DNA from: Minisyncoccota bacterium | Lineage (GTDB): Bacteria; Patescibacteriota; Minisyncoccia; UBA6257; 2-01-FULL-56-20 | Reading direction: 5' to 3' | Length of the DNA: 64,000 bases | NCBI GenBank assembly: GCA_035541435.1 | Contig: DATKNL010000010.1 | Coordinates: 30,250-94,249 of the forward strand | Shown: in pieces, positions 36,698-64,000 of the stretch | Layout: each line of letters starts with the position of its first letter | Position numbering within the stretch: position 1 is the stretch's first letter | Notes under the pieces: generated by a model | The model's input: the letters and a program-made list of their open reading frames with translations, nothing else | The model's database searches: none | Told to the model about the DNA's origin: nothing | Position numbers and translations under genes: made by a program

Positions 36698-38383
36698 CTA
36701 CCACGCGATCTCGCCGGTCACATCCTCGACTTCGCTCCAGGTCGTGATTCCTTGAAGGACCTTGAGGATGCCGTCCTGCTGCATCGTCACCATCTCCTGC
36801 CTGTCCGCAAGCTCGCGCAACGCCACCTCCGACGCCTCTTTGAGAATCGTCTTCTCAAGTTCGGGGCCGCCTTCAAGAAATTCGAAAATGCCGATCCGTC
36901 CCTTATAGCCTAGGCCGCCACACTCGCCGCATCCGACGGCCTCATACATTTCATACGCCTGAAACGGGGATTTGTCCACCCTCTTCGGAAGGCGCGCGAG
37001 GAAATTCTTAATTTTCGCCTCAAGCGCCGCATCGGGCGTCTTCTTTTTCTTACACGTTTTGCAGAGCACCCGCACGAGCCGCTGCGCGATGACGAGCGAA
37101 AGCGCCGGCCCGATGCTTACCGGCTTCACGCCGAGATTGATGAGGCGCGGAACCGCGCCCACGGCGTCGTTCGTGTGCAGTGTCGAGAGCACGAGGTGTC
37201 CGGTGAGCGCCGCCTGCAAGGCGATGTCGGCCGTATCAAGATCGCGGACCTCGCCCACGAGGATCACGTCCGGATCCTGGCGCACGATCGCGCGGAGCCC
37301 GTTCGCGAACGTATAGCCCGATTCCCCGTCGACCTGCGTCTGCTCGATGCCTTCGATGCGGTATTCGATCGGATCCTCGAGCGTGATGATCTTGATTTCG
37401 GGCTTGTTGATGGTCCTCAGGAACGCATAGAGCGTCGTCGTCTTGCCCGAACCCGTGGGCCCCGTGTTCAGGATCAGCCCGTTCGGGCGGGCGAGCTGCC
37501 GCTTCACGATATCGAGGCTGTCGGGGCGGAGCCCAAGATCGGCGATGGCAACCGTGGTCGCCGACGGGTCGAGGATGCGCATGACGATCGTCTCGCCGAA
37601 TTCGGCCGGGATCACCGAAACGCGCATCTCAACCTCCTTGCCCCCGAGCTCGATGGTGAACCGCCCGTCCTGCGCCGCGTCGCGGACGTTCAGCTTGAGT
37701 CCCGAAAGCAGCTTGATGCGCGACACGAATGCGCGGTACGTCTCAAGCGGCAAGCCGTCGAAGATGTCGTGCAGCAGGCCGTCGATGCGAAATCGGATCT
37801 TCGCCTTCTTTTCCTCGGCTTCGGTATGGACATCTGATGCGCGCATGCCCAAAGCCCCGGCAAGGATGATCTCGATCAGCGCGACTGGTGAGATGCGCGC
37901 CGGATCGTGGCTTGCGATCTCCTTGCCGATCGCATCGGTCGACGACAGGCGCTTGCGCAGGTCCTCGAGCCGGTCCTTCGAAATCTTCACCGTGCCGGTG
38001 ATCGCCTCGGCTTCCGGCCGCACGAACTGATAGAACCGCAACGCGGCCTCGAGGCTCGACGGGGAGATGACGACCTGCTTCACCGAATATTTCTTCCCTT
38101 CGAGGTCGCTCACAACCTTCTTCGCGGTTTCGAGGGACGGATTCACGACGCCGAGCGCGATCTTCGTTCCCTTTATTTCGATCGCAACCGCTTTCGCGTT
38201 GCGCGCGTCTTCTTCGGGGACGGCCCGGACGGCGTCAAGGGAAACGGGAACGGTGGCGAGGTTCGCATATGAAAGCCCGAGCTGGGCCGCAAGCCGTTCC
38301 GCGGCGCGCTCCTCGCCGTCACGGCGGAGTTTCACGATCCGCTCCTGAAGCTCATTCGGCTGTAAATCGTGCATTGCTATCAT
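36698..38383 (-). CDS. pilB: Type IV pilus/type II secretion assembly ATPase (PilB/GspE family)
   Basis: N-terminal GspE_N-like region. LILNTGPTGSGKTTTLYAFL Walker A. VRQDPDVILVGEVRD. C-terminal tetracysteine CKTCKKKK...CGECGGLGYKGRIG. Confidence 0.85.
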   Translation of the reverse strand: MIAMHDLQPNELQERIVKLRRDGEERAAERLAAQLGLSYANLATVPVSLDAVRAVPEEDARNAKAVAIEIKGTKIALGVVNPSLETAKKVVSDLEGKKYSVKQVVISPSSLEAALRFYQFVRPEAEAITGTVKISKDRLEDLRKRLSSTDAIGKEIASHDPARISPVALIEIILAGALGMRASDVHTEAEEKKAKIRFRIDGLLHDIFDGLPLETYRAFVSRIKLLSGLKLNVRDAAQDGRFTIELGGKEVEMRVSVIPAEFGETIVMRILDPSATTVAIADLGLRPDSLDIVKRQLARPNGLILNTGPTGSGKTTTLYAFLRTINKPEIKIITLEDPIEYRIEGIEQTQVDGESGYTFANGLRAIVRQDPDVILVGEVRDLDTADIALQAALTGHLVLSTLHTNDAVGAVPRLINLGVKPVSIGPALSLVIAQRLVRVLCKTCKKKKTPDAALEAKIKNFLARLPKRVDKSPFQAYEMYEAVGCGECGGLGYKGRIGIFEFLEGGPELEKTILKEASEVALRELADRQEMVTMQQDGILKVLQGITTWSEVEDVTGEIAW

Positions 38384-47335: not shown

Positions 47336-48565
47336 CTATGGCTGTACGGCGAACCCGTACAGCTTTTTTGTATACCGATCGATGAAATAGATCTCGGTCC
47401 CGGCAACTTTCATGTCGGAAACGTCGACATGCTGGCTGGGATCGCTCCAAAGCACGTCGATGGCCCCGGTTGCCGTGTTGATGCGATAGATGTCGTCCGA
47501 GGTGAACAGCGCCCGCTCGTTATAGTCGTCGGGAAGGCTCGCGGAATTCCATGCGGCCGCATCCCGAGGAATGCCGCAATACAGGGCAAGGTAGGAAACG
47601 GTCGACGTTCCCGATGCCGTGTTCGCCTGGGCGAAGGCGCATTTCGAGGGCAGGGTCGCAAGGTTCAGGGCTTCAAGCGTCGAACCCGAAGCGTTGACGA
47701 GCCGGAGCGATCCGCCTTGGCCGGACTGCGTCGCGGCAAAAAGAAGGCCCGTGGCGCCGCTCCAAAGCGCTTCAGCCCCCGGCGTTTCGGTGACTACCGG
47801 GGACAGGGTCCCCTGCGCATTGTCGAACATGGTGATGGATCCGGCATCGAGGAAGCTTGGCCGGTCAGCAAGGGCGAACTTTCCCGAGGACACCCACTGA
47901 AGCGCGAGGTCGTTCGCATGCAGCGCAAGAAGCTGCGAGGTCTTACCCGTCGACGCATCCATGATCGAAAGCTGCTCGGTGCCGGTCGATGCCGCCGTGA
48001 GGTATGCGACGCGGTTGTCGGTCGGCGACCACGAGGGCGAGAGCATCTTCTGCGTAAGCGGGGTCCATTTCGCCGTCGCGACATCAAAGAGGTCGGTCTG
48101 AGGCGCCGACGGGTTGCCGAAGGCGATGAGCGCCTTCTTGCCGGTCGCAGAAAACGATCCGCCAACGACGTCGCTTGCCGTCGAAGAGCTGATCACCGAG
48201 ACCTTGCCGCCTGAAACCTGGCCGATGATGCCGTTCGTTTCGATCACGAGCGCCGAACCGCTTGCCGTGGGAAGATATTCGAGGATGGGATCGTTCGCCA
48301 ACGGTCCGAAACTGCCCGCCACGGCACCGGTTGCGGGAGTCCCGGCGTTGCCGGTCGTTCCCGTCGCGGTGCCGCCGGCCTGACCATTGCCGGTCGATGC
48401 CCCCTGTGATCCTCCGCCGGTGGCGGCCGGCAGCGATCCCGTCTGCCCTCCTGACGGTTTGGGCGCGATGTTCTGCAGTGAGAAGCTCTTCCAGAAATAA
48501 AGGATGAGCACGGCGAGGATGGCGACGGCGACAACGGCGATGACGATTGAAAGATAGCGTTTCAT
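47336..48565 (-). CDS. Membrane-anchored TolB/PD40-like beta-propeller protein (last gene of the T4SS-like operon)
   Basis: N-terminal TM IVIAVVAVAILAVLILYFW, Gly/Thr linker, PD40-like repeat SPSWSPTDNRVAYL. 1-bp gap to the upstream pilin-like gene. Confidence 0.55.
   Translation of the reverse strand: MKRYLSIVIAVVAVAILAVLILYFWKSFSLQNIAPKPSGGQTGSLPAATGGGSQGASTGNGQAGGTATGTTGNAGTPATGAVAGSFGPLANDPILEYLPTASGSALVIETNGIIGQVSGGKVSVISSSTASDVVGGSFSATGKKALIAFGNPSAPQTDLFDVATAKWTPLTQKMLSPSWSPTDNRVAYLTAASTGTEQLSIMDASTGKTSQLLALHANDLALQWVSSGKFALADRPSFLDAGSITMFDNAQGTLSPVVTETPGAEALWSGATGLLFAATQSGQGGSLRLVNASGSTLEALNLATLPSKCAFAQANTASGTSTVSYLALYCGIPRDAAAWNSASLPDDYNERALFTSDDIYRINTATGAIDVLWSDPSQHVDVSDMKVAGTEIYFIDRYTKKLYGFAVQP
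47341..47370 (+). terminator. Rho-independent terminator for jag, lying inside the 3' end of the convergent PD40 gene
   Basis: GCTGTACGG-cgaac-CCGTACAGC followed by TTTTTTG. On the minus strand the same bases encode ...KKLYGFAVQP. Confidence 0.6.
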
Positions 48566-48566
48566 A

Positions 48567-49295
48567 TTATTGGCAGAGATAGTGCACGGTTTGGGGTGTC
48601 GTTCCCTGGGTGGCGACGTTCACGCAATGCAGGTTGGGCGCACAGGTTCCATAATGGCTGTTCGGCGGATCGCCGCCGCAGGTGTAGTCGGCCGGATTGG
48701 TCGAATGGCAGGCATAGCTCGGATGGGCGTAGTCGCCGTCGTTCGCGCAGATCTGGCCCTGGGGGCATTGTCCCGTCGAGCGCCCGCCGCAAAATACGGC
48801 GCCTGCCGCGTTTTCGCAGCTTCCATTCGTGCAGACGGTTCCCTGGGGGCAGGCCGCCGAGCATCCGCCGCCTTGCTGGTTTCCGCTTGTTGAAATTCCC
48901 TGGAGCGAGGGGAGGTTGAGCGTGGTGAGCGCCGGATCGATCGTGCTTAGGATGAGATAGGCTCCCGCGAGCAGCGCGACGCCGAGGATGGCGCCCCAAA
49001 GCCATTCCTTCGCCTCGCTCTGCATCGACGGATTGCCGCCGGAAGACATATACTTGATGCCGCCGAAGACCATGGCGCCGAACGCGGCAAGGCCGCCGAT
49101 CGCGAGGGCAAACTGATAGAAACTTTTAATGAAGCTTCCGGGATTGCAGTCCGAAGAGTTGGGGTTGGCGCACGAATCCGTTGCGCCGTTGATGGAGGGG
49201 AGGGAAACCGAGATGGCCGCGGCGCGCACCGATCCGGGAACGGTGACCGCCGCCATCAGGGCGGCGACCGAAAAGATGATGGATAGCGCCTTCAT
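48567..49295 (-). CDS. VirB2/TrbC-like pilin candidate with Cys-rich C-terminal extension
   Basis: Signal MKALSIIFSVAALMAAVTVPGSVRA. Two hydrophobic helices separated by a short polar loop (FIKSFYQFALAIGGLAAFGAMVFGG-IKYMSSGGNPSMQSEAKE-WLWGAILGVALLAGAYLILSTI), as in T4SS pilins. A ~110-aa C-terminal domain with 12 Cys follows (CPQGTVCTNGSCENAAGAVFCGG...). Confidence 0.5.
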   Translation of the reverse strand: MKALSIIFSVAALMAAVTVPGSVRAAAISVSLPSINGATDSCANPNSSDCNPGSFIKSFYQFALAIGGLAAFGAMVFGGIKYMSSGGNPSMQSEAKEWLWGAILGVALLAGAYLILSTIDPALTTLNLPSLQGISTSGNQQGGGCSAACPQGTVCTNGSCENAAGAVFCGGRSTGQCPQGQICANDGDYAHPSYACHSTNPADYTCGGDPPNSHYGTCAPNLHCVNVATQGTTPQTVHYLCQ

Positions 49296-49299
49296 CGGA

Positions 49300-50013
49300 T
49301 TATAAGGAGGGCTGATAAGTCAGATTTTCCGAAGCCGATGCCTGGGTCGAATCGCCGCCATTCGAAACCTGGACCGACGCGCTGATGGCGGTTCCTGCCG
49401 CGGTGCCTTTCGGCAGGGTGACCTGCGCCGTCATCGGATTCTCGGCGTTGCCACCGGTCTGGCCGTTGATGTTCCAGAAATAGCTAAGATTGTCCGATGA
49501 CGAGGTGTTGAAGAAATAGGGAATGGCGGCAAGCACGAAGGGATTCGCTGAAAATTGTCCGTTCGGATAGGGCGCCTCGATCACGGCCTTCGGACCCGCC
49601 ATGGGGATCGTGATCGAATGGATGAGGAACGAGCCGTTGTAGTTCGGAAGGTCGACTTCGAGCGTCATCGAGCCCGGAGCCTGGCCGAACGGCGGGAACG
49701 AGATGGTTTGCGCGCCGACGCCGCCGCCCAGCAGCGTGCCATTCAGATACCAATAGATCGTCTGACCCGAAAGGTTTGCAAGCGTCCCGTTGGCCCTGAG
49801 AAGCTCGATCGACGCCGTGATGCGGGATCCATAGGTCGGCAGCGCCTTGCCCGGATAGTTGGGCGGAACATAGCTGCCATTCGCCTTCCAGGTGATGAGG
49901 AACTGCGGCCCGGTTGCCGCATCGGCGCGCGATGCCGAAACGAAGAAGCCGCAGGCCGCGGCAATAAGAAGAGCGGCGACGCCAAACATGAACGCTAAAG
50001 TGCGGTTCGCCAT
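49300..50013 (-). CDS. Secreted hypothetical protein (T4SS-like operon)
   Basis: Start at ATG 50013 (MANRTLAFMFGVAALLIAAACGFFVSASRADA signal). The track's upstream extension is Arg-rich shadow. Several NGS/NGT sequons. Confidence 0.45.
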   Translation of the reverse strand: MANRTLAFMFGVAALLIAAACGFFVSASRADAATGPQFLITWKANGSYVPPNYPGKALPTYGSRITASIELLRANGTLANLSGQTIYWYLNGTLLGGGVGAQTISFPPFGQAPGSMTLEVDLPNYNGSFLIHSITIPMAGPKAVIEAPYPNGQFSANPFVLAAIPYFFNTSSSDNLSYFWNINGQTGGNAENPMTAQVTLPKGTAAGTAISASVQVSNGGDSTQASASENLTYQPSL

Positions 50014-50047
50014 ATCCGTACCTTTATTGTACCAAATGAAATCGCGA

Positions 50048-50713
50048 TCAGGGTGCGGGACGATTCTCGTTCCCGGGCTTTTCGGGTTCCGGCATCTGCT
50101 CGAACTCCTCTTCCTGCGCGACCTCGACCGGATTCCGCTCCTCGGGAGGCGTGAGCGCCTCTTCGGCGGCGCGTTCCCGCTCGTCCGATTCGTTTTCCTG
50201 GTCGTCCCCCTGTTCGTCTTGCTGTGCGACGCCCCGTTGTCCGCGCCTCGCTCCGGCCGGCCGCGCGCCTTCGGCGGCCTGGACGGTCTGCTGCTCGGCC
50301 GTTTCGGCGAGCTTTTCCGTGGCGGCATTCTCGGCGGCTCCTTCGGCGGCAGCCAATTCCCCGCCTCCTTCGAGCGCCGCTCCCTTTCTAATAATCTTAC
50401 TGGCTAAAGATTTCGGATTATTGGCGGCACGAATTCCGATGAGGACGGCAGCCGTGCGGCCGGGGATGAAGAACAGCTGGAGGACATCGTCGATGAATTG
50501 CAGGATCGCCGGCCAGCCGAATCCGACTTTGATGACGAAGACGCTGGTGAAAAATCCGTCGAACAGCAAGTTGATCGGCTCCATGATGGCTTCGCCGGGC
50601 AGGCCGACGACGCTTGCGGCGAACAGGTCGAATACGACCTCGAGCGCGTCGTTTGCAACCGCGAGCAGGATCAGGGCGACGATCCAGAGGGTGTCGAAGG
50701 GTTTTTCTTCCAT
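50048..50713 (-). CDS. Membrane protein with acidic C-terminal tail (T4SS-like operon)
   Basis: 221 aa. TMs LWIVALILLAVA and FFTSVFVIKVGFGWPAIL. Glu-rich C-terminal tail. Confidence 0.45.
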   Translation of the reverse strand: MEEKPFDTLWIVALILLAVANDALEVVFDLFAASVVGLPGEAIMEPINLLFDGFFTSVFVIKVGFGWPAILQFIDDVLQLFFIPGRTAAVLIGIRAANNPKSLASKIIRKGAALEGGGELAAAEGAAENAATEKLAETAEQQTVQAAEGARPAGARRGQRGVAQQDEQGDDQENESDERERAAEEALTPPEERNPVEVAQEEEFEQMPEPEKPGNENRPAP

Positions 50714-50729
50714 AGCTCGCAGCCGTTAA

Positions 50730-52463
50730 CTAGAGTCCCTGCGCCTTTTCCTCGAGCAGCTGTTCGGGATTCGTCGTGATGATCTGGTCCTCGAAATAGG
50801 AGGGGACGATCTGGATCGCGACGTGCCGCTTGCCGGCGAAGAAGATGCCGGTGCCCACTTCGGCCCCGAGCAGGAAGTTCTTTTCGGCCTCGGTGAGGTC
50901 GAACGCCTTTGCGACGATGTCGATCGTCGCCGGCGCCTGCTTGAGGAGCAGCTGGATCGACGAGTTCGTGATGATCGGCCGGCCGAGGGGCGCGCGCAGG
51001 AAGTCCTCGACGTCCTGCGTGATGGTCGAGATGCCGAGATAATATTTGCGGGCGCGCTTCACGAGGTCGTGCAGGAATTTGGCGCTGTCGTCGTTCTTCA
51101 TCATGATCCATGCCTCGTCGATGAAGAGCAGGCGCTTGGCAAGCTTCGCGCGGATCAGGCTCCAGATGAAGTTCAGCACGAGGAACATGCCGATCGGGCG
51201 CAGCTCCTCTTCGAGGTCGCGGATCGAGAAGACGATGAGGCGGTTCGTGACGTCGATGTTCGTCGGCTGGTTGAGGAATCCTGCAAAGCTCCCCTTGGTG
51301 TATTTATAGAGCTTCTCGGCGAGGTCCTTGCCGCCTTCCATGCCGCGGAGGACGGTCTCGAGGTCGCCCAAGAGCGGCGGTTCCTTGCCGGCGAAGTCCC
51401 CGTCGGCCACGATGTCGCGCGACGCATAGGTCTCGGTGATCGCCCGGTCAAGGAGCGCGTCCTCTTCGGGGGTGAGCGCGCCGAGCATCAGCTTGAGGAG
51501 GCTTGCGAGCGTCACGACATGCGACCGCAGCACGTCCGACGGCGATTCGTTCTCGGGGATCAGCGGTACGTCGAACGGGTTGATGTGCTCGTGGGACGAG
51601 AGCGAGATGTTGAACATGCTGCCGCCGAACGTCTTCGCCAGGCGCTCGTATTCGTTTTCCGGATCGATCACGAGCACCATGTCGACGCCCGCCATGAGCG
51701 AGCGGATGATCTCGAGCTTCGTCGTGTACGATTTTCCGGCGCCCGATTTCGCGAAGACCACCTGGTTCGCGTTCTCGAGCGAGAAGCGGTCGAAGATGAC
51801 GAGGTTGTTGTTGTGCAGGTTGATGCCGTACATGATCCCTTCGTTCGACGAGAGGTCCTCCGAGACGAACGGGAAGAACGACGAGATCGGCCCCGTGTTC
51901 ATCGGCGTGTAGATCTGCAGCTTGTCGGCGTCGAGCGGCAGGACCGAGAACAGCCCTTCGAGCTGGCTGAAGAGCGCCGGCTTCAGATAGATGAGCTTCG
52001 CCTCCATCATGCTCGTGAGCTTGCTTTCGAGCTTGACGAGCTCGTCCTCGTTGTCGGCATAGATCGTGATATAGACGCCCGTGTCGAAGAGCTTCTCTTC
52101 GGACTGCTGCAGCGAGTCGCGCAGGTTCTCGATGTCCTGGACGGCGGTCTCGAGCATCGGGTTCCTCACGAGCCCCTTCTCCTGCTCGTCGGCGATCTGC
52201 GATTCGAGTTGCCCGGCCTTCTTCCTCAGGTTTTTGAGCGCCACGCCGGTATCGATCGGATTCACATAGATCGAGACGTCGAACAGGTTCGGCAGGTTGA
52301 TGAGCGGCTCGAACCATCCGGTCGAAAGGTAGCGCGGATAGGACAGCACGAAGAACGTCTTCGCGAGCTTGTCGCCGATCTTCAGGTAGTTCGGAAAGAC
52401 CTGCGCGCCGGCGGGGGCGATGATCTTCTTGATATCCTTGAAATTGGCCGATTCTTCGGGCAT
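50730..52463 (-). CDS. VirB4/TraE/PrgJ-family T4SS ATPase, ATPase (C-terminal) portion
   Basis: Walker A FAKSGAGKSYTTK, Walker B LLFIDEAWIMM. Conserved VirB4 central region YPRYLSTGWFEPLINLPNLFDVSIY. Confidence 0.8.
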   Translation of the reverse strand: MPEESANFKDIKKIIAPAGAQVFPNYLKIGDKLAKTFFVLSYPRYLSTGWFEPLINLPNLFDVSIYVNPIDTGVALKNLRKKAGQLESQIADEQEKGLVRNPMLETAVQDIENLRDSLQQSEEKLFDTGVYITIYADNEDELVKLESKLTSMMEAKLIYLKPALFSQLEGLFSVLPLDADKLQIYTPMNTGPISSFFPFVSEDLSSNEGIMYGINLHNNNLVIFDRFSLENANQVVFAKSGAGKSYTTKLEIIRSLMAGVDMVLVIDPENEYERLAKTFGGSMFNISLSSHEHINPFDVPLIPENESPSDVLRSHVVTLASLLKLMLGALTPEEDALLDRAITETYASRDIVADGDFAGKEPPLLGDLETVLRGMEGGKDLAEKLYKYTKGSFAGFLNQPTNIDVTNRLIVFSIRDLEEELRPIGMFLVLNFIWSLIRAKLAKRLLFIDEAWIMMKNDDSAKFLHDLVKRARKYYLGISTITQDVEDFLRAPLGRPIITNSSIQLLLKQAPATIDIVAKAFDLTEAEKNFLLGAEVGTGIFFAGKRHVAIQIVPSYFEDQIITTNPEQLLEEKAQGL

Positions 52464-52475
52464 GGCTCCTCTATA

Positions 52476-53174
52476 TTATTGCTGATCGGCGCGGGCGGCC
52501 GCGGCTCCCGTTCCCCGTTCGACGGTCTGGGGATTATAGAAATTATAGAAAAGCTCGACGAGCTCCTGGTTGCCGAGCGCCGTCGCCTCAAGCCCGATGG
52601 CAAGGAGGCCGGTGACGGCCTGGTTGACCCGCTGGTTCAGTTGGCCGACGTTCTCTTTGAAGTCTTGCTCGGCCTGTTCTTCCGATCCCGCAGCAGCGGC
52701 GGGTCCGTTTTTTTTGCCGCCGCCGAAGAGCCCGCCCAGGATGCCCTGGCTTGCGCTCTTGATGACCGATCCCAGGGGATAGAACGGGACGACGACCAGG
52801 AACATCTTTTCCATGATCGCGTTCTTTGCGACGAATCCCTTGATGAACTCGGCGTATTCGTCGATCTGGCTCTGGAGGATCGGCGACGTCTCAACCTGCT
52901 TGCGGCGCATAAGGGTCTCGACGTACTTGTCGATGTTCACCTTGCGGGAATGGATCAGGACCTGCAACGGGAAGTCGATGGAGTTCAGAAAGGTCTGATA
53001 GGTCTGGGTGATGATCGTCTGTTCGGTTTCGGACTTCAGCGCGAAGTTCACTCCGCCAACCAGGATGATCTGGCGAAGGCTGCCGTCCTTAAGGACGACC
53101 ACGTCGTCGCGGATTTCCTTGATGTCGACGAGGTCGAGCGAGCTGCCGGTATCCTGCCGTGAAGGTGCCGCCAT
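52476..53174 (-). CDS. VirB4-family N-terminal domain encoded as a separate ORF
   Basis: LDLVDIKEIRDDVVVLKDGSLRQIILVGGVNFALKSETEQTIITQTYQTFLNSIDFPLQVLIHSRKVN matches the N-terminal region of Gram-positive VirB4 homologues. Ends at TAA 12 nt before the ATPase ORF, which is in a different frame. Confidence 0.55.
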   Translation of the reverse strand: MAAPSRQDTGSSLDLVDIKEIRDDVVVLKDGSLRQIILVGGVNFALKSETEQTIITQTYQTFLNSIDFPLQVLIHSRKVNIDKYVETLMRRKQVETSPILQSQIDEYAEFIKGFVAKNAIMEKMFLVVVPFYPLGSVIKSASQGILGGLFGGGKKNGPAAAAGSEEQAEQDFKENVGQLNQRVNQAVTGLLAIGLEATALGNQELVELFYNFYNPQTVERGTGAAAARADQQ

Positions 53175-53230
53175 GTCCTTATTTTACAATGGAATCGCGA
53201 ATCCGGCGAAGCGCCGGCCGGCCCTGGACC

Positions 53231-53815
53231 TCAGCGGTAATCGACGCGCCGCGCCGCCGCACGGTCCCCCGTCGGACGGGTGAAAATGTGATAGCGCTCG
53301 TTCATTTTGCGCTCAAGGAACTGCCGGTCCGAGGTCTTCTTGGTCGCCTCGCCCGTCTGGACGCTTTGCAGCTTCTTATGAAGCGACGATCCGGCGATGA
53401 TATCGGCGATCTGGTCCAGTGAGATGCCCTTTTCCTTTTTCTCGGCGACTACCGGCGCCGGCGTTGCTTTGGGCGGGAGGACGGCCCGCGAAGATGACGG
53501 CGGTGCGGATTTTTTCTGCGGAAGCGAAACCGTCGGATGCTCGGGCTGCCAGACGTAGGTCTGGGGCTTCCAATAATAGCTCACGGCGGCAAGCACGACC
53601 TGCGGCAGCGGCCGGCCCTCGATCTTCACGAACGAAAGCGCGAGCGACGACCCGATGAGGACGACTGCGGCGATGATGAAAAGCCAGAACGAAACGAAGA
53701 AATAAAAGAAGGCGCTTATGAAGCACGCGACGCCCACGAAGGCGAATTGGCGCAACGAGAGCGGACCTATGACTTTGTCGTCGGTCTCGATGAATTGCGG
53801 GACCTGAAACTGCAT
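53231..53815 (-). CDS. PrgI/VirB3-like small membrane protein
   Basis: MQFQVPQFIETDDKVIGPLSLRQFAFVGVACFISAFFYFFVSFWLFIIAAVVLIGSSL: N-terminal motif plus a TM hairpin as in PrgI-family proteins. Position immediately upstream of VirB4. Confidence 0.5.
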   Translation of the reverse strand: MQFQVPQFIETDDKVIGPLSLRQFAFVGVACFISAFFYFFVSFWLFIIAAVVLIGSSLALSFVKIEGRPLPQVVLAAVSYYWKPQTYVWQPEHPTVSLPQKKSAPPSSSRAVLPPKATPAPVVAEKKEKGISLDQIADIIAGSSLHKKLQSVQTGEATKKTSDRQFLERKMNERYHIFTRPTGDRAAARRVDYR

Positions 53816-53818
53816 CCC

Positions 53819-55612
53819 TTAAGTATAGTCCTTCCGGATCGGCTTTGAAGGGCCGGCGGCCGGATTGGTCAGCTTCGGTTGGGGCGTCGGAGGGGCCGGC
53901 GGCTTCGGTGTCGCGGTCGGCGCCGCGGGCGCAACCGGTGTCGCAGGTGCGACGGGTGTTGGCATTGCGGCCGTCGCGGGCGCGTGCGGTGGTGTGGCAG
54001 GTGCCACGGGCGCCGTGGGTGCGACGGGTGCGGTCGGTGCCGCACTCGTCATTTTCGCAGCACCTGGCATGACAGTCGGCTTCGGCGGCATGGGTGGCAG
54101 CGGGGGGAGGGGCGAGACGGGCGTAGCTGGCGGCGTAAAGGTGGGCGCAGGTGCGGTCGTCGCCTTAGGCGACGTCGATTGCGGCGGCGTGGGACCCGAA
54201 GGTTGCGATGCCGGCGGCGGCGTGGGGCCTGCGGGACGTTCGGTGACTCCGATCGTGGCGACGGGCACCTTCGGCGCGTTCGACGTCGAGGCGGCCGAAG
54301 GCACGCCAGATGTCCCCGGCTTTGCCGTCGTCATTTCGGTAACCGTCCGCTCGCCCGGCATGGGCGGCGTCTCTTTGAAATTGCTGTAATGCGGCAGCTT
54401 GGTCGTGCCGGAAGCCGGCTTCGCGGATGCGCCCGCAAGCGATCCGAGTTCGAGGACGGCCGCCTTCACGACATCCTTCGGCTTGATTTCTTCGAGCGAG
54501 ATTTCCGCGCCGCCGCCCGGACGCGCAAGATGGAAATCGTTCTTCGCGCCGATCGACGAGAATTCCGCATCGTGATGCAGCATGACGGGAGGCGGTGCGG
54601 CTGCAGCCGGCTGAGCGTCCGATGGCGATGATGACGACGGGTGCGCGTCCGATGACGAGGTCATCTTCGACCAGCCAGGCTGCGAGAAGGGTGACGCTTT
54701 CGGCGCCGCGGGAGCCGGCATCGCGGCCTGCGGTGCGCCCTTTGCGGTCGACGACAGCGCCGCTGCCGCCTCGGAAATCGATGCGGGCTTTGCCGGCGGG
54801 GTCGCAGGCGATGCCGGCGTCGACGGCTTGGATGATGACGTCGACATGAGCGACGATGCCGTTACGAACGAAGGCTTCGTTCCCGTCGACGGCGAAGGGC
54901 TTGCGGCTGGCTGTCCGCCGCTTCCCGCGATGGATGAGAGCACGGCAGAGACCGGTTTTGCGGCAGGTCCCGCGGCAACGGCATGTTGATTGCCCTGCTG
55001 CATTCCCTGCGGCTGTCCCGCCCCACCGCTACTGCCTCCCTGAGGTTTCGGCGGCATCGCGGGCGATCCGCTGATCTGACTGAGCACGGTTTTGCCGGCA
55101 TCAAGGGTCGCGGTGGTCACGGTGACGGACGGTTTGGGTGCGGGCGTGGTCGCGGGCGCCGCCTTGCCCGGGATAAGCGACGCGGTCTGCGTCGACATGG
55201 GGACGGCGTCGTGGACGATGTCGTTCATCATGCGGGGTGCCGGATGCGCGCCATTCCCTGCAAGAGGACTCGCGACCGGTACGGCGCCGGCCGGATTGTA
55301 GATCTTGTCGATCTCCTGTCGGATCGGAGCGAACAATCTTTCGTTCAGGGCGTTTTGAATATCGCCCGACGTCTTCGCGTCGAGCGCGATTTGTGTGACA
55401 AGTTCTGCTGCGAGGTCTTCGGGGTGAAGGAATCCCATCAGGACCCATCCGACAAGCTTGGCGACTACATAAATTTTTTCTTCGGGAACGTTTTCTCGCT
55501 GGCAGGTCTTCCAAACGAAATCAGAACCGGCTTCCGAGACGAGGGCTTCTCGCAGGACATCGGGGAGGGCGTCCCACCGCTCCAGGGCTTGGTTTGTGCT
55601 GATTGTCGTCAT
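53819..55612 (-). CDS. Protein with ~130-aa N-terminal globular domain and ~460-aa Pro/Ala/Thr/Ser-rich disordered region (T4SS-like operon)
   Basis: No signal peptide or TM. Repeats such as APTAPVAPTAPVAPATP. The DNA carries imperfect GGTGCGACGGGTG-type repeats around 53900-54050. Confidence 0.5.
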   Translation of the reverse strand: MTTISTNQALERWDALPDVLREALVSEAGSDFVWKTCQRENVPEEKIYVVAKLVGWVLMGFLHPEDLAAELVTQIALDAKTSGDIQNALNERLFAPIRQEIDKIYNPAGAVPVASPLAGNGAHPAPRMMNDIVHDAVPMSTQTASLIPGKAAPATTPAPKPSVTVTTATLDAGKTVLSQISGSPAMPPKPQGGSSGGAGQPQGMQQGNQHAVAAGPAAKPVSAVLSSIAGSGGQPAASPSPSTGTKPSFVTASSLMSTSSSKPSTPASPATPPAKPASISEAAAALSSTAKGAPQAAMPAPAAPKASPFSQPGWSKMTSSSDAHPSSSSPSDAQPAAAAPPPVMLHHDAEFSSIGAKNDFHLARPGGGAEISLEEIKPKDVVKAAVLELGSLAGASAKPASGTTKLPHYSNFKETPPMPGERTVTEMTTAKPGTSGVPSAASTSNAPKVPVATIGVTERPAGPTPPPASQPSGPTPPQSTSPKATTAPAPTFTPPATPVSPLPPLPPMPPKPTVMPGAAKMTSAAPTAPVAPTAPVAPATPPHAPATAAMPTPVAPATPVAPAAPTATPKPPAPPTPQPKLTNPAAGPSKPIRKDYT

Positions 55613-55615
55613 GAT

Positions 55616-57928
55616 CTATGAGTGAGCGCCACCTTCGACGGCAGAGGCGGGAGGCGCAGATGTTGTACCCGTTCCGGGATCCTGAAGGACAGCGTTGTAG
55701 TCGAAGGCCTGTTTCCTGGCGCGGCGTGCCGTTTCGAGATTCTCCTCTTCCCGGGTCATCGTTTGCCTGAGCGCATCCTGCTCCTTCTTGAGAATTTCGA
55801 TCTGAGCTTTCCCGGCGTCGATCTGGGTTTGGATGGCCTTCTTGTCGGCCTCGCTTTCGGTTTGGGCAATTTGCTTGGTGAGTCTTTCGATCTGATTTTC
55901 CTGTTCCTTGATAGCCTGGGCCTTTTCCGCGCTCTTAACGAAGAACGCCCGTTGAGACATTTCCGTTTGGATGACGTCGTCATAGACTCGGTTAAACGTC
56001 TGAAGCTGAGCCCCCTTCAGTTTAGAGATGGCGCTTGCGGGAAGATGAGGTTGGCGCAGGGCCATGTTTTTAAGCAACGACCGAGTTTTGAAGTCGTCCT
56101 TCCCGAAAACGTCATTGACGTTTGCCTTAGCGATGTCGCTCTTCAACAGCTTGTCGACGAATTTGCCCGATTCCTCGTCGATCTTGGGCTGCGCCTTGGT
56201 GCGAACATTCTCGAATTCACGAATTGCCGCCTCGATAGCTTGGGCATTTCCTGATTTCTTGGCGTTGGAAACCTTGGCTTCTGCTTCGATAACGGGCTGC
56301 ATGGCTGCGCGCATCTCGGCGTTGTTACCGATGGCCTTGTCGGCCTCTTCCTGGTCGTGCTTCCATCCATATCGCTCGATGGCTGGCCGGTTGGCATCCA
56401 TCCATGCGCCAACTGTCTGGTTGCGTACCATGGTGTCCGGCGCGAGCTTACCCTTTTCGCGAAGTTTCGAGATGTGCGCCAGGGTTTCCTCCATGCTCAT
56501 CCTCCCCTTCAGGGCCTCCTTGATCGATTCGGGGTTGTCAGAGACATGTTTTTTTGCCTCTTCGACCATCTTGCTGTTCGTGATATAAGGTTCCATGGCG
56601 CGGCCTGCCTTGTTGGCTACGGTGCCGATCAGAGGAATCTTGGCGAGCGTCTGGTTTGATTTGAGCCCTTTCGATAATTTGTCTGCTGCCGGTTTCCCGA
56701 TCCGGACAGCCGCTTTTTTGGTCTGCTTCGCGGCGAATCCCTTCACCTGGCCGCCGGCCCATTTCGCGCCGCTCACGACCGCTTCGGATCCTCCGAGCGA
56801 GAGGGCCTGCGCGGCAAAGAGGCCGCCGAGCGCGAGGCCGACGAGCACGATGTCGTTGAGGGCCTGCTGCGTCCATCCGCCATGCGCGGTGCTTGCGGCG
56901 CTTGCAGCATAGGGGTTGTTCGGGTTTTGCACGGCAGCCGCATCGATGTTCGCAGCCGGAACGGTCGGTGATCCGTTGAGCGCGACCGCCGAAAGCATGG
57001 CGACATACAGGAAGAACGTCACGAGCGCGGGAAAAAGCGCCCATTTGATGAACAGCCCCCACCACTTCGCGAAATAATCGAACTTCGGGAAGATCCATGT
57101 GAGCCAGGCAAGTGGCAATACGATGAGAAGGAATACGAGATAGACATAGCGAACGACGAGCATGATGCCGACGATGAGCAGGGTGAAGACGACGATGCCC
57201 AGAAAGATCGTCGAAAAGAAACCGGCGGTGACGGCCTGCATGAACGTCGTCGCCCCCGAAGAGTCGTTGCCTTTCGTCATATTGGCGGCAGCATTGCATA
57301 CGAGCGCCGTTTCAGGATCCAGATCGCAGTCATTCGAAGCCTGCTGGGTGTTGCCGGCCGTCTGGGCGGGAACAATGTCCGGAGGAGCCTGGAATTTCGA
57401 TACTCCGAAGTCGGTGGCCATAAGCGTTGCAACGTTATTGTCCCCTCCCATGGCACCAACGAAATAATTCGAAAGATTATCGGCCAAGCCGACGATCGGT
57501 CCCGTTATGACAAGCCCGAAATTGACAAGGATCGCCATGAGGACGAGCTTCCACAGGGATTGCTTGATGCCATAGCTTTCGCTGCGCAGGATGGTCGCGA
57601 TCGCTATGATGATGATCCCAAGGACGAATCCGAGGTTCGCGATGGCGAGTGCTATCGAAAACCCCTGTTGGACCGTGGCGGAGTTGAACGCGCTTTCGTC
57701 AAGGTGAATGCCGAGGTTGATGATCTGCGCACTCAGGTCGACAAGCAGAAAGAGGAAGCTGTTGATGGCGGTGCTTATGAAAAGCACGGCGCTCGTAACC
57801 GGACTGGTGTACCAGTTGACCATGCTCGGGTTCGAACTTGCCGCCCATGTTCCGCGCGGAAGGGCGATCATCGTTCCCGTCAGGGCGGTCAGGATCAGGC
57901 CGGCTTTCTTGGTGAAAAACTTCTTCAT
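55616..57928 (-). CDS. VirB6/TrbL-like polytopic T4SS membrane protein with long C-terminal coiled-coil region
   Basis: Signal peptide plus at least 6 TMs (FLFLLVDLSAQIINLGI, GFVLGIIIIAIATIL, LVLMAILVNFGLVITGPIVGL, FFSTIFLGIVVFTLLIVGIMLVV, VFLLIVLPLAWLTWIFP, WALFPALVTFFLYVAMLSAVAL). A ~380-aa hydrophilic Lys/Glu/Gln-rich tail follows. Confidence 0.6.
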   Translation of the reverse strand: MKKFFTKKAGLILTALTGTMIALPRGTWAASSNPSMVNWYTSPVTSAVLFISTAINSFLFLLVDLSAQIINLGIHLDESAFNSATVQQGFSIALAIANLGFVLGIIIIAIATILRSESYGIKQSLWKLVLMAILVNFGLVITGPIVGLADNLSNYFVGAMGGDNNVATLMATDFGVSKFQAPPDIVPAQTAGNTQQASNDCDLDPETALVCNAAANMTKGNDSSGATTFMQAVTAGFFSTIFLGIVVFTLLIVGIMLVVRYVYLVFLLIVLPLAWLTWIFPKFDYFAKWWGLFIKWALFPALVTFFLYVAMLSAVALNGSPTVPAANIDAAAVQNPNNPYAASAASTAHGGWTQQALNDIVLVGLALGGLFAAQALSLGGSEAVVSGAKWAGGQVKGFAAKQTKKAAVRIGKPAADKLSKGLKSNQTLAKIPLIGTVANKAGRAMEPYITNSKMVEEAKKHVSDNPESIKEALKGRMSMEETLAHISKLREKGKLAPDTMVRNQTVGAWMDANRPAIERYGWKHDQEEADKAIGNNAEMRAAMQPVIEAEAKVSNAKKSGNAQAIEAAIREFENVRTKAQPKIDEESGKFVDKLLKSDIAKANVNDVFGKDDFKTRSLLKNMALRQPHLPASAISKLKGAQLQTFNRVYDDVIQTEMSQRAFFVKSAEKAQAIKEQENQIERLTKQIAQTESEADKKAIQTQIDAGKAQIEILKKEQDALRQTMTREEENLETARRARKQAFDYNAVLQDPGTGTTSAPPASAVEGGAHS

Positions 57929-57929
57929 C

Positions 57930-60065
57930 TCATTGCGTGACGATCACAGTGCAGGTTGCCGGCGTGTCACCTGTCGTGTCGCTCAGGGTCACCGTATAGG
58001 TTCCCGGTGCGACGAATGCGTGACTGAAGACGTAGCCGGTGGCCGTCGATCCGTCAGAAGACGCCCACGAATAATTGACCGTGCCGTTCGCGCCGGACTT
58101 CCCGCCGTTCGCCGATACGAAGATCGAAACGGAGCTCGAGGTGTTTTGCGCGGTCGGATTGCACGAGAGAGGAATGACGGGCGCCGTCGCTCCCCCGCTT
58201 TGGATCGACGAGGGGTTCGTTCCCGAGAGGCCGCTGTTGATCGCCTGAGTCGCGGTGTTTACCGCGAGGCTCGAGAGGCTGTTGAGCAGCGAGTCGGTGA
58301 GGGCGTTCAGCAGGCCGGCGATGTCATCGGCCGACGTGATGAGCTTGATCGGCGAATCGAGGATCGAGCTCAGGCTGTATCCGGTTGTGATGCCCGGGGT
58401 CGTGGTCTTCGGTTCCGACCCGTCGGCGCAGCTTCCGCCGTTCGAGACATAGACAGGGGTGTCGCCGGCATTGCACGATCCGCCGTTCGGATAGGCGTTC
58501 GCTCCCGACGGCGTTCGGCATTCGAGATGATAGCCGCTTTTCGGATCGCTCCCGTCCGCGCAGACGCCGTCACCCGTAAATCCCTGCGATGACGTGAGCT
58601 GCGTCGTTGCGGCGAGCTGCGCGTTCCGCGCATTCTGATCGGCGATCTGCGCCTGAAAATAAAGGCTTTGATAATAGTTGTTGACAGGAAGGGCGTTCAC
58701 GCCGAACGCGAGCCATCCGCCGTTCGAGAAATTCTGATAGAACTGGCTGAGCGAATAGCCGCCAAGCGCCGCAGTGAACGTCCCCGCGCAATAGTTGTTG
58801 CCCGCGTTCACGTTATAGAACGTGCTCAGCGTGACCTGGATCTGCGGAAGGATTGATGGATTCACGCAGGCGAAGTTGCTGTTCAGATAGTTGAGCGCCC
58901 CCTGGGTATAGGACTGCACGAGCGCAACGCCCCACTGCTGAACGAACCGCGGCGCGCCGCTGCCTTGGATCCATTTGAGCACGTGCTGTTGGACGAGGGC
59001 GGTGAGGGCGTTTTTAAGAATCTGCAAAATGATGTCGTTCACATGCTGCAAGACGATCTCCGCGAATACGCTGGGGTCGAACGTGATGTCGCCGAGTCCG
59101 AAGATCGCGTGCGCCGTGTGGATGCCGAGGATGTTGTCGACGAAGGAAATCGAAGCCGATACGTCCTCGTTCGAATTCTTGCCGAAGTACAATCCGACCT
59201 GGCTCGCCTTCTGCATCTGAAGCTGCAGGTTCTGGAGCGCCGCCTGATATTTCGCCTGCTCCTCTTTGAAGATGATGCCCGTCTTCACCGGGTCGGCATT
59301 CGCGCCTTCCGCGAGCTGAAGGGAATTCTTTTCATACACGAGCATCATTACGAGGCTCTTATGGAAATCGGCAAGCTGGCTCGGAACGCGCAACGCGAGA
59401 ACGTCGCCGAGCGATCCTTGAATCTGCGTATTGATCGCCGCCATCTGGCCCGGATCGGTTCCGAGCGAATCGACGGCCTCGCTGAGGTTCGTCGAAACGA
59501 AATGCTTGGTGAGGACGTCGTTCAGCGCCTTCCCGTATTGCGCGATGTCATCGCCGCTTGACGAGGTGGCGATCCTGATCGGCTGCATGTTCGCCTCAAG
59601 GGTCCAGTCGGGAATCTGCAGGCCCGCCGTCGCCGTCGCGTTCGCCACCTGCATGGCGATGGCGTTGATGTCCGGTTGGGCGAGGTTCGGATTCCCGTTC
59701 GCGTCAGGCGTCGCGCCGTTCGGATTCGCCGATATCACGCCGTCCAGATAGGTTTCGGCGAGCGCATTCGTGAGATTGCTGTCATCCGAAAGAGAAATGC
59801 TCGTGGTGGGAACGTCGTCCGAAATCACCTCGACGCCGTTTGCCACTGCGACGGCGGGAAGGAACGCGTTCTGATTCTGCAGGGGCGTCTGGGTGGGCGA
59901 CTGTGACTCTTGTGATCCGGCTTGTCCATTTGCGGCCAGCGTGCCGGATGAGTCTGTTCCGGCGACCGACCCCGAGCCCCCGATATTCATCACAAGGACT
60001 GCCGATACGCTCGCAGCGGCAGCCAAAATCAAGAAACCGGTGATCAATTTCTTGACATCGATCAT
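57930..60065 (-). CDS. Large secreted/surface protein, first gene of the T4SS-like operon
   Basis: 711 aa, signal/anchor ITGFLILAAAASVSAVLVM. Gln/Asn/Ser/Thr-rich. Cys-containing region (CADGSDPKSGYHLECRTPSGANAYPNGGSCNAGDTPVYVSNGGSCADGSEPK). C-terminal beta-rich domain. Confidence 0.5.
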   Translation of the reverse strand: MIDVKKLITGFLILAAAASVSAVLVMNIGGSGSVAGTDSSGTLAANGQAGSQESQSPTQTPLQNQNAFLPAVAVANGVEVISDDVPTTSISLSDDSNLTNALAETYLDGVISANPNGATPDANGNPNLAQPDINAIAMQVANATATAGLQIPDWTLEANMQPIRIATSSSGDDIAQYGKALNDVLTKHFVSTNLSEAVDSLGTDPGQMAAINTQIQGSLGDVLALRVPSQLADFHKSLVMMLVYEKNSLQLAEGANADPVKTGIIFKEEQAKYQAALQNLQLQMQKASQVGLYFGKNSNEDVSASISFVDNILGIHTAHAIFGLGDITFDPSVFAEIVLQHVNDIILQILKNALTALVQQHVLKWIQGSGAPRFVQQWGVALVQSYTQGALNYLNSNFACVNPSILPQIQVTLSTFYNVNAGNNYCAGTFTAALGGYSLSQFYQNFSNGGWLAFGVNALPVNNYYQSLYFQAQIADQNARNAQLAATTQLTSSQGFTGDGVCADGSDPKSGYHLECRTPSGANAYPNGGSCNAGDTPVYVSNGGSCADGSEPKTTTPGITTGYSLSSILDSPIKLITSADDIAGLLNALTDSLLNSLSSLAVNTATQAINSGLSGTNPSSIQSGGATAPVIPLSCNPTAQNTSSSVSIFVSANGGKSGANGTVNYSWASSDGSTATGYVFSHAFVAPGTYTVTLSDTTGDTPATCTVIVTQ

Positions 60066-60163
60066 TTACCTCTATTATAGCTCTGACTTCCTCTTCTGTA
60101 TTAGGGCTTTATCCACACAAAACGCTTATTTTTCCGATCATTCCGAATGTCCGGGCGCTGAAA

Positions 60164-62995: not shown

Positions 62996-64000
62996 GTGGC
63001 TGTTTTTTTGGTTGGGACCCTGTTCGTGACCCGGTTCGCATTTCTGCCTCAGACGGGAACAGTCGTTGAGCGGGGCGTTTTCGGCGGTCCTTCGGCTGAT
63101 CCTTCCGCGGCTTCCGGCATCCTGATTGCCACCGCCCAGGGAGCTGAAACGGGCGCATTGACCGATCAGGGGCTCGCCACGTTCGTGTCCGACGCCGACG
63201 TCTCAGGATCAAGCGGGCAATTGGCGCCGGCTCAGATGCCTGCGGACATCGTCGATCAGGGAGCCCTTCAGGATCCCGGCCAGCCGATCGGTCCTTCGGT
63301 TGCCAGGACGGGTTTGATAGATTACACGGTTCGGAACGGCGACAGCCTTTCGAAAATTGCTTCCTATTTCGGGGTTTCGGTTCAAACGATCCTCAGTGCC
63401 AATCCCGGCATCAAGGCGGGATCCCTCAAGGCGGGAGTCGACCTCAAGATTTTGCCGACGAGCGGCGTCATTTACGAGACGAAGCCCGGCGACACCCTCG
63501 CTTCGATCGCGGCAGCGTTCGGGATTCCTCAAGACAAAATAACGCAGTTCAACGCTTCTGTAAATTTCAACTCACTTGAATCTGGGCAGTCGATCGTGGT
63601 TCCGGGAGGAACTGACAGCGCGATCACCACGACGCAGGCAGGCGGTCCCGTCCTTCCGAACTTTGATAAAAACTTTATCATGCCGACGGTCGGCTATAAC
63701 TGGGGTATCCTCCATCACGAGAACGCCGTCGATATCGCCAACTCCTGCGGCACGCCGGTTGACGCGGCCGCCTCAGGCATCGTCGTTCCCGACCCCGACG
63801 AATCGAATCAGATCGGAGGATGGAATGGCGGTTATGGAAACTTCGTCCTTATCCAGCATGCGTTCGGGAACAACATCGAAACCCGATATGCCCACCTCGA
63901 GAAAGTTCTCGTGCAGATCGGCGACTATGTGACGCAGGGCCAGGAAATCGGCCTCATGGGAGAAACCGGTGATGCGACGGGGTGCCATCTGCATTTCGAA
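62996..64000 (+). CDS. LysM-LysM-M23 peptidoglycan endopeptidase, 3' end runs off window
   Basis: Manual in-frame translation from GTG 62996: hydrophobic anchor VAVFLVGTLFVTRFAFL; LysM 1 IDYTVRNGDSLSKIASYFGVSVQTILSANP; LysM 2 IYETKPGDTLASIAAAFGIPQDKITQFN; M23 HHENAVDIA...GGYGNFVLIQHAFGN...GETGDATGCHLHFE. Absent from the ORF track because there is no stop in the window. ATG 63236 is an alternative start. Confidence 0.7.
   Translation, partial: MAVFLVGTLFVTRFAFLPQTGTVVERGVFGGPSADPSAASGILIATAQGAETGALTDQGLATFVSDADVSGSSGQLAPAQMPADIVDQGALQDPGQPIGPSVARTGLIDYTVRNGDSLSKIASYFGVSVQTILSANPGIKAGSLKAGVDLKILPTSGVIYETKPGDTLASIAAAFGIPQDKITQFNASVNFNSLESGQSIVVPGGTDSAITTTQAGGPVLPNFDKNFIMPTVGYNWGILHHENAVDIANSCGTPVDAAASGIVVPDPDESNQIGGWNGGYGNFVLIQHAFGNNIETRYAHLEKVLVQIGDYVTQGQEIGLMGETGDATGCHLHFE

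Follow-up and report, generated by a model that had tools for sequence, protein, structure and literature searches.

A type IV secretion system-like gene cluster near the predicted replication origin of a Paceibacteria-class Patescibacterium

Does a compact set of type IV secretion system (T4SS) genes in a Patescibacterium belong to a conjugative element, or does it serve the cell that carries it in some other way? The question is raised by ten genes on the minus strand (47336–60065) of a 64,000-nucleotide stretch of DNA from a Minisyncoccota bacterium (GenBank assembly GCA_035541435.1, contig DATKNL010000010.1, positions 30,250 to 94,249 of the forward strand), which we refer to as the window. 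A first-pass annotation, made by a model from the sequence alone, had described these genes as an operon for a minimal Gram-positive-style machine that lacks a coupling protein, a relaxase and VirB11. The analysis described here indicates that the cluster is very probably a chromosomal, vertically inherited T4SS of a Paceibacteria-class Patescibacterium, that within the monoderm MPF_FATA class it probably falls in the 'Patescibacteria clade', and that it probably serves a host-dependent lifestyle rather than conjugation.

The ten open reading frames (ORFs) cover 12.7 kb in total and are named g1 to g10 in transcription order; all are on the minus strand. They are tightly spaced, with gaps of 1, 3, 3, 56, 12, 16, 34, 4 and 1 nt from g1 through to g10, and both the ORFs and their packed layout were found as the first-pass annotation had given them. 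Codon-position GC favours these frames over the overlapping alternative ORFs, and all ten genes are intact. The GC content of the window is approximately 60%. In order to compare the cluster with its relatives, one genome per species was scanned, which gave 80 related loci with VirB4 identities of 55–91%.

The ATPase that identifies the cluster is encoded by g6 (50730–52463, 577 aa). It scores 390.6 bits against the NCBIfam VirB4-like model conju_CD1110, above the curated cutoff of 325, and also matches the Pfam models P-loop_TraG (88 bits), AAA_10 and DUF87 as well as the TraC and VirB4_CagE models. The alignment is confined to positions 185–734 of the 752 in the CD1110 profile, which means that g6 is a VirB4-family ATPase without the N-terminal domain. 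Both nucleotide-binding motifs are intact: Walker A (GAGKS) at residue 241 (51729–51743) and Walker B (FIDEAW) at residue 447 (51108–51125). There are more than 8000 homologues and, among the best 120, those with a named source are all from Paceibacterota, Minisyncoccia or Patescibacteria (81–100% identity), and one protein from a Candidatus Paceibacterota metagenome-assembled genome is 100% identical to g6; the best plasmid matches from outside the candidate phyla radiation (CPR) have identities of at most 37%.

The missing N-terminal domain is encoded by the gene immediately upstream, g5 (52476–53174, 232 aa). This protein matches the NCBIfam TrsD/TraD family (E 8e-10) and aligns with the N-terminal 100 or so residues of three VirB4 models (positions 12–115, 103–218 and 19–116). 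The two genes are in the same frame here, and the 12-nt gap between them holds a TAA stop, a Shine–Dalgarno-like AGAGGAG and then the ATG. A TrsD-like gene is present in 78 of the 80 loci; the two genes are separate ORFs in 73 of these 78, mostly in different frames, and are fused in the other five. A frameshift or sequencing error can be ruled out because each gene has its own ribosome-binding site and start and the split recurs in the 73 relatives, and from this recurrence we conclude that the two-gene VirB4 is ancestral. The rare fusions, in turn, confirm that g5 and g6 are parts of one functional unit. Homologues of g5 also precede short VirB4 genes in replicons of Miltoncostaea, Pontibacillus, Priestia and Paenibacillus. 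An XF1762-family gene lying between PrgI and VirB4 in Embleya was considered as a TrsD equivalent, but has no similarity to g5.

Two genes upstream of VirB4, g4 (53231–53815, 194 aa) encodes a PrgI/VirB3-like membrane protein with two transmembrane helices and a C-terminal extension of about 100 aa. Residues 5–88 match PF12666 (PrgI) with 37.1 bits, above the cutoff of 27, and there is a further match to the SCO6880 family (E 9e-6). A g4 homologue is present in 74 of the 80 loci. The three assignments made in the first-pass annotation for this part of the cluster, a PrgI/VirB3-like protein, a separate VirB4 N-domain and a VirB4 ATPase, therefore hold. The gene order had additionally been said to mirror PrgH–PrgI–PrgJ of Firmicute conjugation systems. 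The module itself is recognizable, but the nearest analogue for g4–g5–g6 is VirB3–TrsD–VirB4, in the naming of the NCBIfam TrsD/TraD family, and the order is not simply that of PrgH–PrgI–PrgJ because the proline-rich g3 stands between the VirB6-like gene and that for PrgI.

The VirB6-like gene is g2 (55616–57928, 770 aa). Its product is predicted to have a signal or transmembrane segment and approximately six transmembrane helices within residues 1–380, followed by a hydrophilic, coiled-coil-rich C-terminal half of about 390 aa, the layout known as 'extended VirB6'. Searches with this half return coiled-coil noise only. Matches of the single sequence are weak and below the curated cutoffs (TrbL_4, E 0.0099; the CD3337/EF1877 mobilome membrane protein family, E 5e-4), and relatives fare little better, with TrbL matching 4 of 46 and TrbL_4 matching 2 of 46. 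Precomputed PF19590 or PF04610 assignments exist for about 12 of 120 g2 homologues. An AlphaFold2 model of residues 1–420, built with 120 homologues (mean predicted local accuracy, pLDDT, 81.6; predicted template-modelling score, pTM, 0.75), was compared by Foldseek with 350,542 PDB chains. TrwI/VirB6 chains from the R388 stalk complex take the first six ranks and Legionella DotA the seventh; the best E value is 2e-3 with a probability of 1.0, although TM-scores are low (0.2–0.3). By profile comparison (hhalign), the g2 family matches the membrane protein encoded directly upstream of PrgI in Embleya (probability 91%, E 1e-6) and, less well, R388 TrwI (E 0.034). Taken together, the model and the profiles suggest that g2 is VirB6-like in role and probable ancestry. 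The VirB6/TrbL-like label given in the first pass thus agrees with the structural matches to R388 VirB6 and with the Embleya comparison, and falls short of family-level sequence thresholds.

The pilin gene, g9 (48567–49295, 242 aa), lies three genes downstream of VirB4. Its product, a Sec-type VirB2-like pilin, has a signal peptide, a two-helix pilin core (residues 55–120 or so) and a C-terminal extension of about 120 aa; residues 55–118 match PF18895 (T4SS_pilin) with 34 bits, above the cutoff of 26.6. The extension (48567–48930) holds 12 of the 14 cysteines of the protein. Among 45 relatives the core is kept, and the extension ranges from absent to more than 300 aa and is often cysteine-rich. 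The protein had been read as a VirB2-like pilin with a cysteine knot-like domain. It is indeed a pilin, and the cysteine-rich part is better described as a lineage-variable C-terminal extension. A hypervariable extension of this kind is as expected for a module that is exposed on the surface and faces the host, and it parallels the divergent pilin arrays of Saccharibacteria.

The remaining five genes encode accessory proteins, and g1, g3, g7 and g8 are, as far as the profile and structure searches reach, four genes without known relatives. The N-terminal hydrophobic segments of g1, g8 and g10 place these three proteins outside the cytoplasm by prediction. The first gene of the cluster, g1 (57930–60065, 711 aa), encodes a secreted or membrane-anchored protein that starts with a hydrophobic helix, continues with a mostly alpha-helical body and ends in a PKD domain; at 711 aa it is not the 'giant' surface protein that it had been called. 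Structure searches return PKD or Ig matches only and are swamped by the PKD domain. Nine members of the g1 family give near-threshold matches to the short DUF4141 model at residues 300–340 or so, and DUF4141 proteins adjoin TraJ in Bacteroides conjugative transposons. A comparison with R388 TrwJ/VirB5 gave an hhalign probability of 0.1%, and g1 was rejected as a VirB5 homologue on this basis; the sub-threshold DUF4141 motif and the position of the gene remain as a low-probability lead.

Between g2 and g4 lies g3 (53819–55612, 597 aa), whose product has no transmembrane segment. It consists of a conserved N-terminal domain of about 105 aa and Pro/Ala-rich linkers (17% Pro, 17% Ala) with a few conserved islands. 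Neither the family profile nor any of its 37 members has a relative in Pfam or the PDB; tblastn matches to g3 lie between g2 and g4 in 36 of the 80 loci. The small membrane protein encoded by g7 (50048–50713, 221 aa) has a conserved hydrophobic core of about 100 aa and a variable, acidic Gly/Ala/Glu-rich tail. It has no Pfam or NCBIfam match, and a positional homologue is found between VirB4 and g8 in 59 loci. Its gene occupies the place of the type IV coupling protein (T4CP) in Embleya, and g7 was therefore compared with the membrane domain of that protein as a possible remnant of it; the hhalign probability was 0.04%, and this origin was rejected.

The product of g8 (49300–50013, 237 aa) is secreted or anchored, beta-rich and built of two repeat-like halves behind a single N-terminal transmembrane or signal segment. 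A longer ORF would extend to 50328, and the true start is the conserved internal ATG. Homologues are found in 64 of the 80 loci, with M1, W42, W88 and W180 invariant. There is a weak match to the Ig-like BiPBP_C model (E 3e-5, below cutoff), and the family profile has no significant PDB match. A VirB8-like identity found no support, as no NTF2-type or other significant PDB or Pfam match was obtained and the weak matches are Ig-like. Finally, g10 (47336–48565, 409 aa), the last gene of the cluster, encodes a membrane-anchored protein with an N-terminal transmembrane helix, a Gly/Thr/Ala-rich linker and a TolB/PD40-like propeller. The single sequence has no Pfam match, but a profile of 47 orthologues matches TolB crystal structures over four stretches (E 7e-11), in agreement with the PD40 beta-propeller proposed in the first pass. 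A match to TIGR02800 (TolB) is weak (E 2e-5), and PD40 and other propeller models match a few family members. A g10 homologue is present in 52 of the 80 loci.

If the cluster were part of a conjugative element, DNA-transfer genes would be sought beside it. Pfam scans, which covered the ten cluster proteins and about 40 other ORFs of the window, found no VirD4/T4CP, relaxase, integrase or VirB11 in the 64 kb, as the first-pass annotation had maintained. Likewise, no profile matches to VirB5, VirB8, VirB9, VirB10 or VirB11 were found in the cluster proteins, and no outer-membrane core (VirB7/9/10) domains in the ten proteins or the other ORFs. The adjacent relaxase and coupling protein that would have made the locus an ordinary integrative and conjugative element (ICE) were also sought with the T4CP and relaxase of Embleya as tblastn queries, and neither had a match in the window or in the flanks (10 kb on each side) of the 80 loci. 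The sole T2SSE-family ATPase in the window (36698–38383, 561 aa) is of the PilB type and was excluded as VirB11 by its size and its MshEN domain. Its gene has ruvB on one side and a YebC-family gene on the other, and is not accompanied by further pilus genes.

A possible wall-opening enzyme lies 3 kb upstream of the cluster, where a gene for a LysM–LysM–M23 peptidase (62996–64000) is divergent from uvrD; two housekeeping genes stand between it and the cluster. It is in the same place in several relatives, and its product resembles the C-terminus of a T4SS-linked M23 protein of Pontibacillus (E 8e-13). We regard this peptidase as a candidate VirB1-like partner, in line with what a 2025 survey noted for Paceibacteria (PMC12102498).

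The chromosomal setting points the same way as the gene content. The cluster is flanked upstream by ksgA and uvrD and downstream by jag (R3H), yidC, dnaA and dnaN. The order uvrD–ksgA–g1–g2–g3–g4–g5–g6–(g7)–g8–g9–g10–jag–yidC–dnaA–dnaN is found in most of the 80 loci, where contigs reach far enough. Because this order recurs across most of 80 species, we conclude that the locus has been inherited vertically and is no integrative element. Neither an integrase nor a repeat boundary was found, and there is no cluster-specific GC break. With housekeeping flanks and a conserved order as well, the view of the first pass that the locus is chromosomal and no ordinary ICE is well founded. Between closest relatives, identity drops from 84–91% for the cytoplasmic ATPase to about 30–60% for the exported and membrane parts.

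The cumulative GC-skew minimum coincides with a dip in GC content to 44% at 43–44.5 kb, which predicts an origin of replication (oriC) beside dnaA and dnaN, 2–16 kb from the cluster. The cluster, ksgA and uvrD are on the minus strand to the right of this origin, so their transcription would be head-on to replication. This arrangement of cluster and origin, with its head-on orientation, is kept in relatives.

The 98-nt spacer between ksgA and g1 (60066–60163, minus strand) is the likely promoter region of the cluster. A TATAAT (60076–60081) lies 8 nt upstream of the g1 ATG and is aligned in about 10 of 12 relatives. There is also a perfect DnaA box, TTATCCACA, at 60109–60117, which is 44–52 nt upstream of the g1 start, and six close relatives (L003, L007, L008, L009, L011 and L022) have one-mismatch boxes at −51 to −55. 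In the window as a whole, 12 DnaA-box-like sites with at most one mismatch were observed in comparison with 4.0 ± 2.0 expected, and the four perfect boxes (13766, 21439, 40323 and 60109) are all in or next to intergenic DNA. The TATAAT and the DnaA box suggest a dedicated and possibly leaderless or near-leaderless promoter with possible input from DnaA, and DnaA may act as a transcription factor for the g1–g10 operon and others. In generic scans for promoters and terminators the counts did not exceed those for shuffled sequence; the conserved TATAAT was missed by these scans and found only by aligning relatives. The exception in the terminator scan is a 10-bp GC-rich hairpin with a T-run at 47340–47364, between the convergent jag and g10 and overlapping the last g10 codons. 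The hairpin probably terminates jag and might work bidirectionally.

Elsewhere in the window, a run of large minus-strand genes for secreted or surface proteins occupies 694–21359, with a GC content (63–66%) above that of the rest of the window. The domains recognized in these proteins are fn3, purple-acid-phosphatase N, cohesin, dockerin, Big_13, Big_6 and WxLIP peptidoglycan-binding; several of the proteins are unmatched.

How might such a machine work? PrgI and the TrsD-like domain would keep a hexamer of VirB4 in place on the VirB6-like platform in the membrane, where ATP hydrolysis by VirB4 would extract the membrane-inserted pilin and drive its polymerization into a thin, wall-crossing tube or pilus. 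Accessory proteins that are secreted would form or decorate the wall-spanning and distal extracellular part and make contact with the host cell, probably through the PKD domain and the pilin's variable C-terminal domain. The machine would serve a host-dependent lifestyle by passing proteins out or host material in, and not by conjugation. These steps are inferred from established T4SS biology.

Several points weigh against this account. Pilus formation and any substrate are likewise inferred, Paceibacteria systems being known from genes alone. The VirB6 assignment is the weakest of the component identities, given the low TM-scores and the sub-threshold sequence matches. No VirB8-like or VirB1-like component was recognized inside the cluster, and co-transcription of the ten genes is deduced from their spacing. 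The absence of a coupling protein holds for the window, and a VirD4-like partner may be encoded elsewhere in the genome.

The alternative that survives best is that the cluster makes an adhesion organelle only, in which VirB4 assembles a VirB2-type tether to the host and nothing is transported. The variable, cysteine-rich extension of the pilin, which would face outward, fits such a tether, as do the PKD-domain protein and the propeller, both typical binding modules, and there is no coupling protein to recruit a substrate. However, for adhesion the genome already has the ATPase of a type IV pilus, and a VirB6-like channel protein is retained and conserved. The lack of a coupling protein is shared with the Bordetella Ptl and Brucella VirB T4SSs (PMC12102498), and the latter has at least 15 identified secreted effectors (PMC12857230). 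On balance we think it unlikely that the organelle is for adhesion alone.

A device for DNA uptake or export, comparable to ComB or the archaeal Ced system, would import host or environmental DNA as a source of nucleotides or for recombination. ComB is a diderm VirB-type system and the earlier comparison of the cluster with it is loose. The ATPase g6 does match two ATPases of archaeal DNA import, CedB (E 4e-10) and CedD (E 6e-4), but far more weakly than it matches conjugative VirB4 (391 bits), so this likeness reflects only a shared ATPase fold. The position of uvrD directly upstream in the same orientation would suit a role in DNA uptake, as would the comF, recG and radA genes that adjoin the loci of the ABY1 class (PMC12102498) and the lack of nucleotide synthesis in Patescibacteria (PMC10633639). 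Set against this, no DNA-binding or DNA-processing gene is found inside the cluster, and competence in Southlakia epibionticum relies on type IV pili and ComEC, with comEC dispensable for growth and the T4SS essential (PMC12857230). We consider DNA transport improbable as the function and rank protein export or exchange with the host above it, with conjugation last.

That the cluster is an ICE, still working or recently decayed, with its relaxase and coupling protein beyond the window can be dismissed as very improbable: its VirB4 family is otherwise found in conjugative elements and VirD4-like genes occur elsewhere in most Patescibacteria genomes (PMC12102498), but the cluster is placed between ksgA/uvrD and jag/yidC/dnaA, with an unchanged gene order, in most of the 80 species, bears none of the boundaries of an element and has all ten genes intact, the 10 kb on either side of the 80 loci gave no tblastn match to a single actinobacterial relaxase and T4CP, and 99.3% of the VirB4 proteins of the clade have their nearest homologue within the same class, which argues for vertical descent (PMC12102498).

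Returning to a host-directed secretion system as the preferred reading, a more specific version of it can be put forward, in which the cluster makes a true VirB2-type pilus in a single-membrane cell. The fast-evolving, disulfide-rich C-terminal domain of the pilin would lie on the pilus surface and determine host specificity. The g1 protein would be an unrecognized VirB5-type tip or stalk protein, with its helical body, DUF4141-like motif and PKD domain, encoded directly before the VirB6-like gene as in R388. The role of the TolB-like propeller would be to fix the shaft in the wall, and DnaA would switch on the cluster from a leaderless promoter beside the origin. Taken as a whole, this version is distinctly doubtful. 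If DnaA does switch on the cluster, engagement with the host would be tied to the replication cycle.

How does the cluster compare with systems that are already known? The T4SS of Patescibacteria has been found in a very large bacterial radiation: VirB4 is present in 2,417 of 3,035 genomes surveyed (about 80%), nearly all of it in one clade nested in MPF_FATA, with TrsD, PrgI/VirB3, VirB6 and PF18895 pilins adjoining virB4 and relaxases in 103 genomes only (Quinonero-Coronel et al., 2025, Microb Genom; PMC12102498). The Paceibacteria locus is described there as lying near dnaA, dnaN, ksgA, rnpA and rpmH. The window cluster has in common with this clade the monoderm-type VirB4, the TrsD-like and PrgI/VirB3 proteins, probably the VirB6-like protein, the PF18895 pilin, the lack of a relaxase and the dnaA/dnaN/ksgA neighbourhood, and there is no essential difference from the Paceibacteria arrangement.

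The equivalent cluster of S. epibionticum (SEML1_0006–0019) was shown by transposon sequencing to be essential for epibiotic growth (Wang et al., 2023, Cell; PMC10633639), and the T4SS of Patescibacteria is the first T4SS reported to be essential for the survival of its owner. The S. epibionticum cluster is Gram-positive-like in composition, its pilins are essential and it has no recognizable coupling protein or relaxase (PMC10633639). The order of the VirB6-like, PrgI, TrsD-like (SEML1_0009) and VirB4 genes is identical in the two clusters, and PF18895 pilins are common to both. In the Saccharibacteria cluster there are, in addition, six divergent genes for pilins, which lie on the opposite strand, and genes for an NTF2-like (VirB8-like) protein and a lysozyme/glucosaminidase. 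In the window there is instead one pilin with a long extension and a TolB-like propeller, and no hydrolase or NTF2-like gene is recognized inside the cluster. The likeness to T4SS loci linked to epibiotic growth in Saccharibacteria and other CPR bacteria, which the first-pass annotation had pointed out, thus agrees with the published descriptions (PMC12102498, PMC10633639).

Since every headline feature was published between 2023 and 2025 (PMC10633639, PMC12102498, PMC12857230), the last of these being a 2025 review that covers the T4SS of Patescibacteria, the finding is already known. The locus brings no new principle, and its source is an uncultured metagenome-assembled genome. The additions made here are small: family-level descriptions of g1, g3, g7, g8 and g10, five genes for which databases had offered no match, the variable pilin extension and the conserved TATAAT with its DnaA-box-like site. 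The value of the locus is as a clean and complete Paceibacteria example, useful for predicting the structure of the entire complex and for selecting conserved accessory genes (g1, g3, g7, g8 and g10) for genetic work in relatives that can be cultivated.

The VirB6-like–PrgI–VirB4 module is also common to the MPF_FATA systems that serve conjugation in Firmicutes and Actinobacteria (pGO1/pSK41 Trs, pIP501 Tra, pCF10 Prg and the cluster L081 on an Embleya plasmid). VirB4 is 36–37% identical over 95% of its length, and the TrsD/TraD family also matches. In Embleya, however, the T4CP, a relaxase and an NlpC/P60 hydrolase are encoded directly after VirB4, where the window has g7 to g10. The conjugative systems have genes for a coupling protein, a relaxase and a cell-wall hydrolase next to VirB4, lie on mobile elements and generally lack a pilin (PMC12102498), whereas the locus in the window has a pilin, is chromosomally fixed and has no DNA-transfer genes.

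Modules with a TrsD-like gene and a short VirB4 gene are additionally found on the large 'non-mobilizable' replicons of Miltoncostaea oceani (L082, an Actinomycete) and Pontibacillus (L083). The Miltoncostaea locus has an annotated PrgI gene; in Pontibacillus an unannotated 116-aa gene is in the PrgI position, and no relaxase or coupling protein is annotated nearby. The Pontibacillus locus, on the 898-kb replicon of Pontibacillus sp. ALD_SL1 (NZ_CP062975.1, 351–361 kb), encodes in one run a pilin-like protein, a large membrane protein, a small protein, a TrsD-like protein and a short CD1110 VirB4, and then a 1050-aa M23 peptidase. It differs from the window cluster in being on a Firmicute megaplasmid and in having no propeller and no homologues of g1, g3 or g8. 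Its pilin-like gene belongs to the NCBIfam Mbov_0395 family, named from Mycoplasma ICEs, and the pilin and TrsD-like proteins match those of Paceibacteria by tblastn (E 6e-8 and 1e-27, respectively). Because the Pontibacillus pilin-like gene shares detectable homology with the pilins of Paceibacteria, Patescibacteria are not alone in having pilins in monoderm T4SS-like loci.

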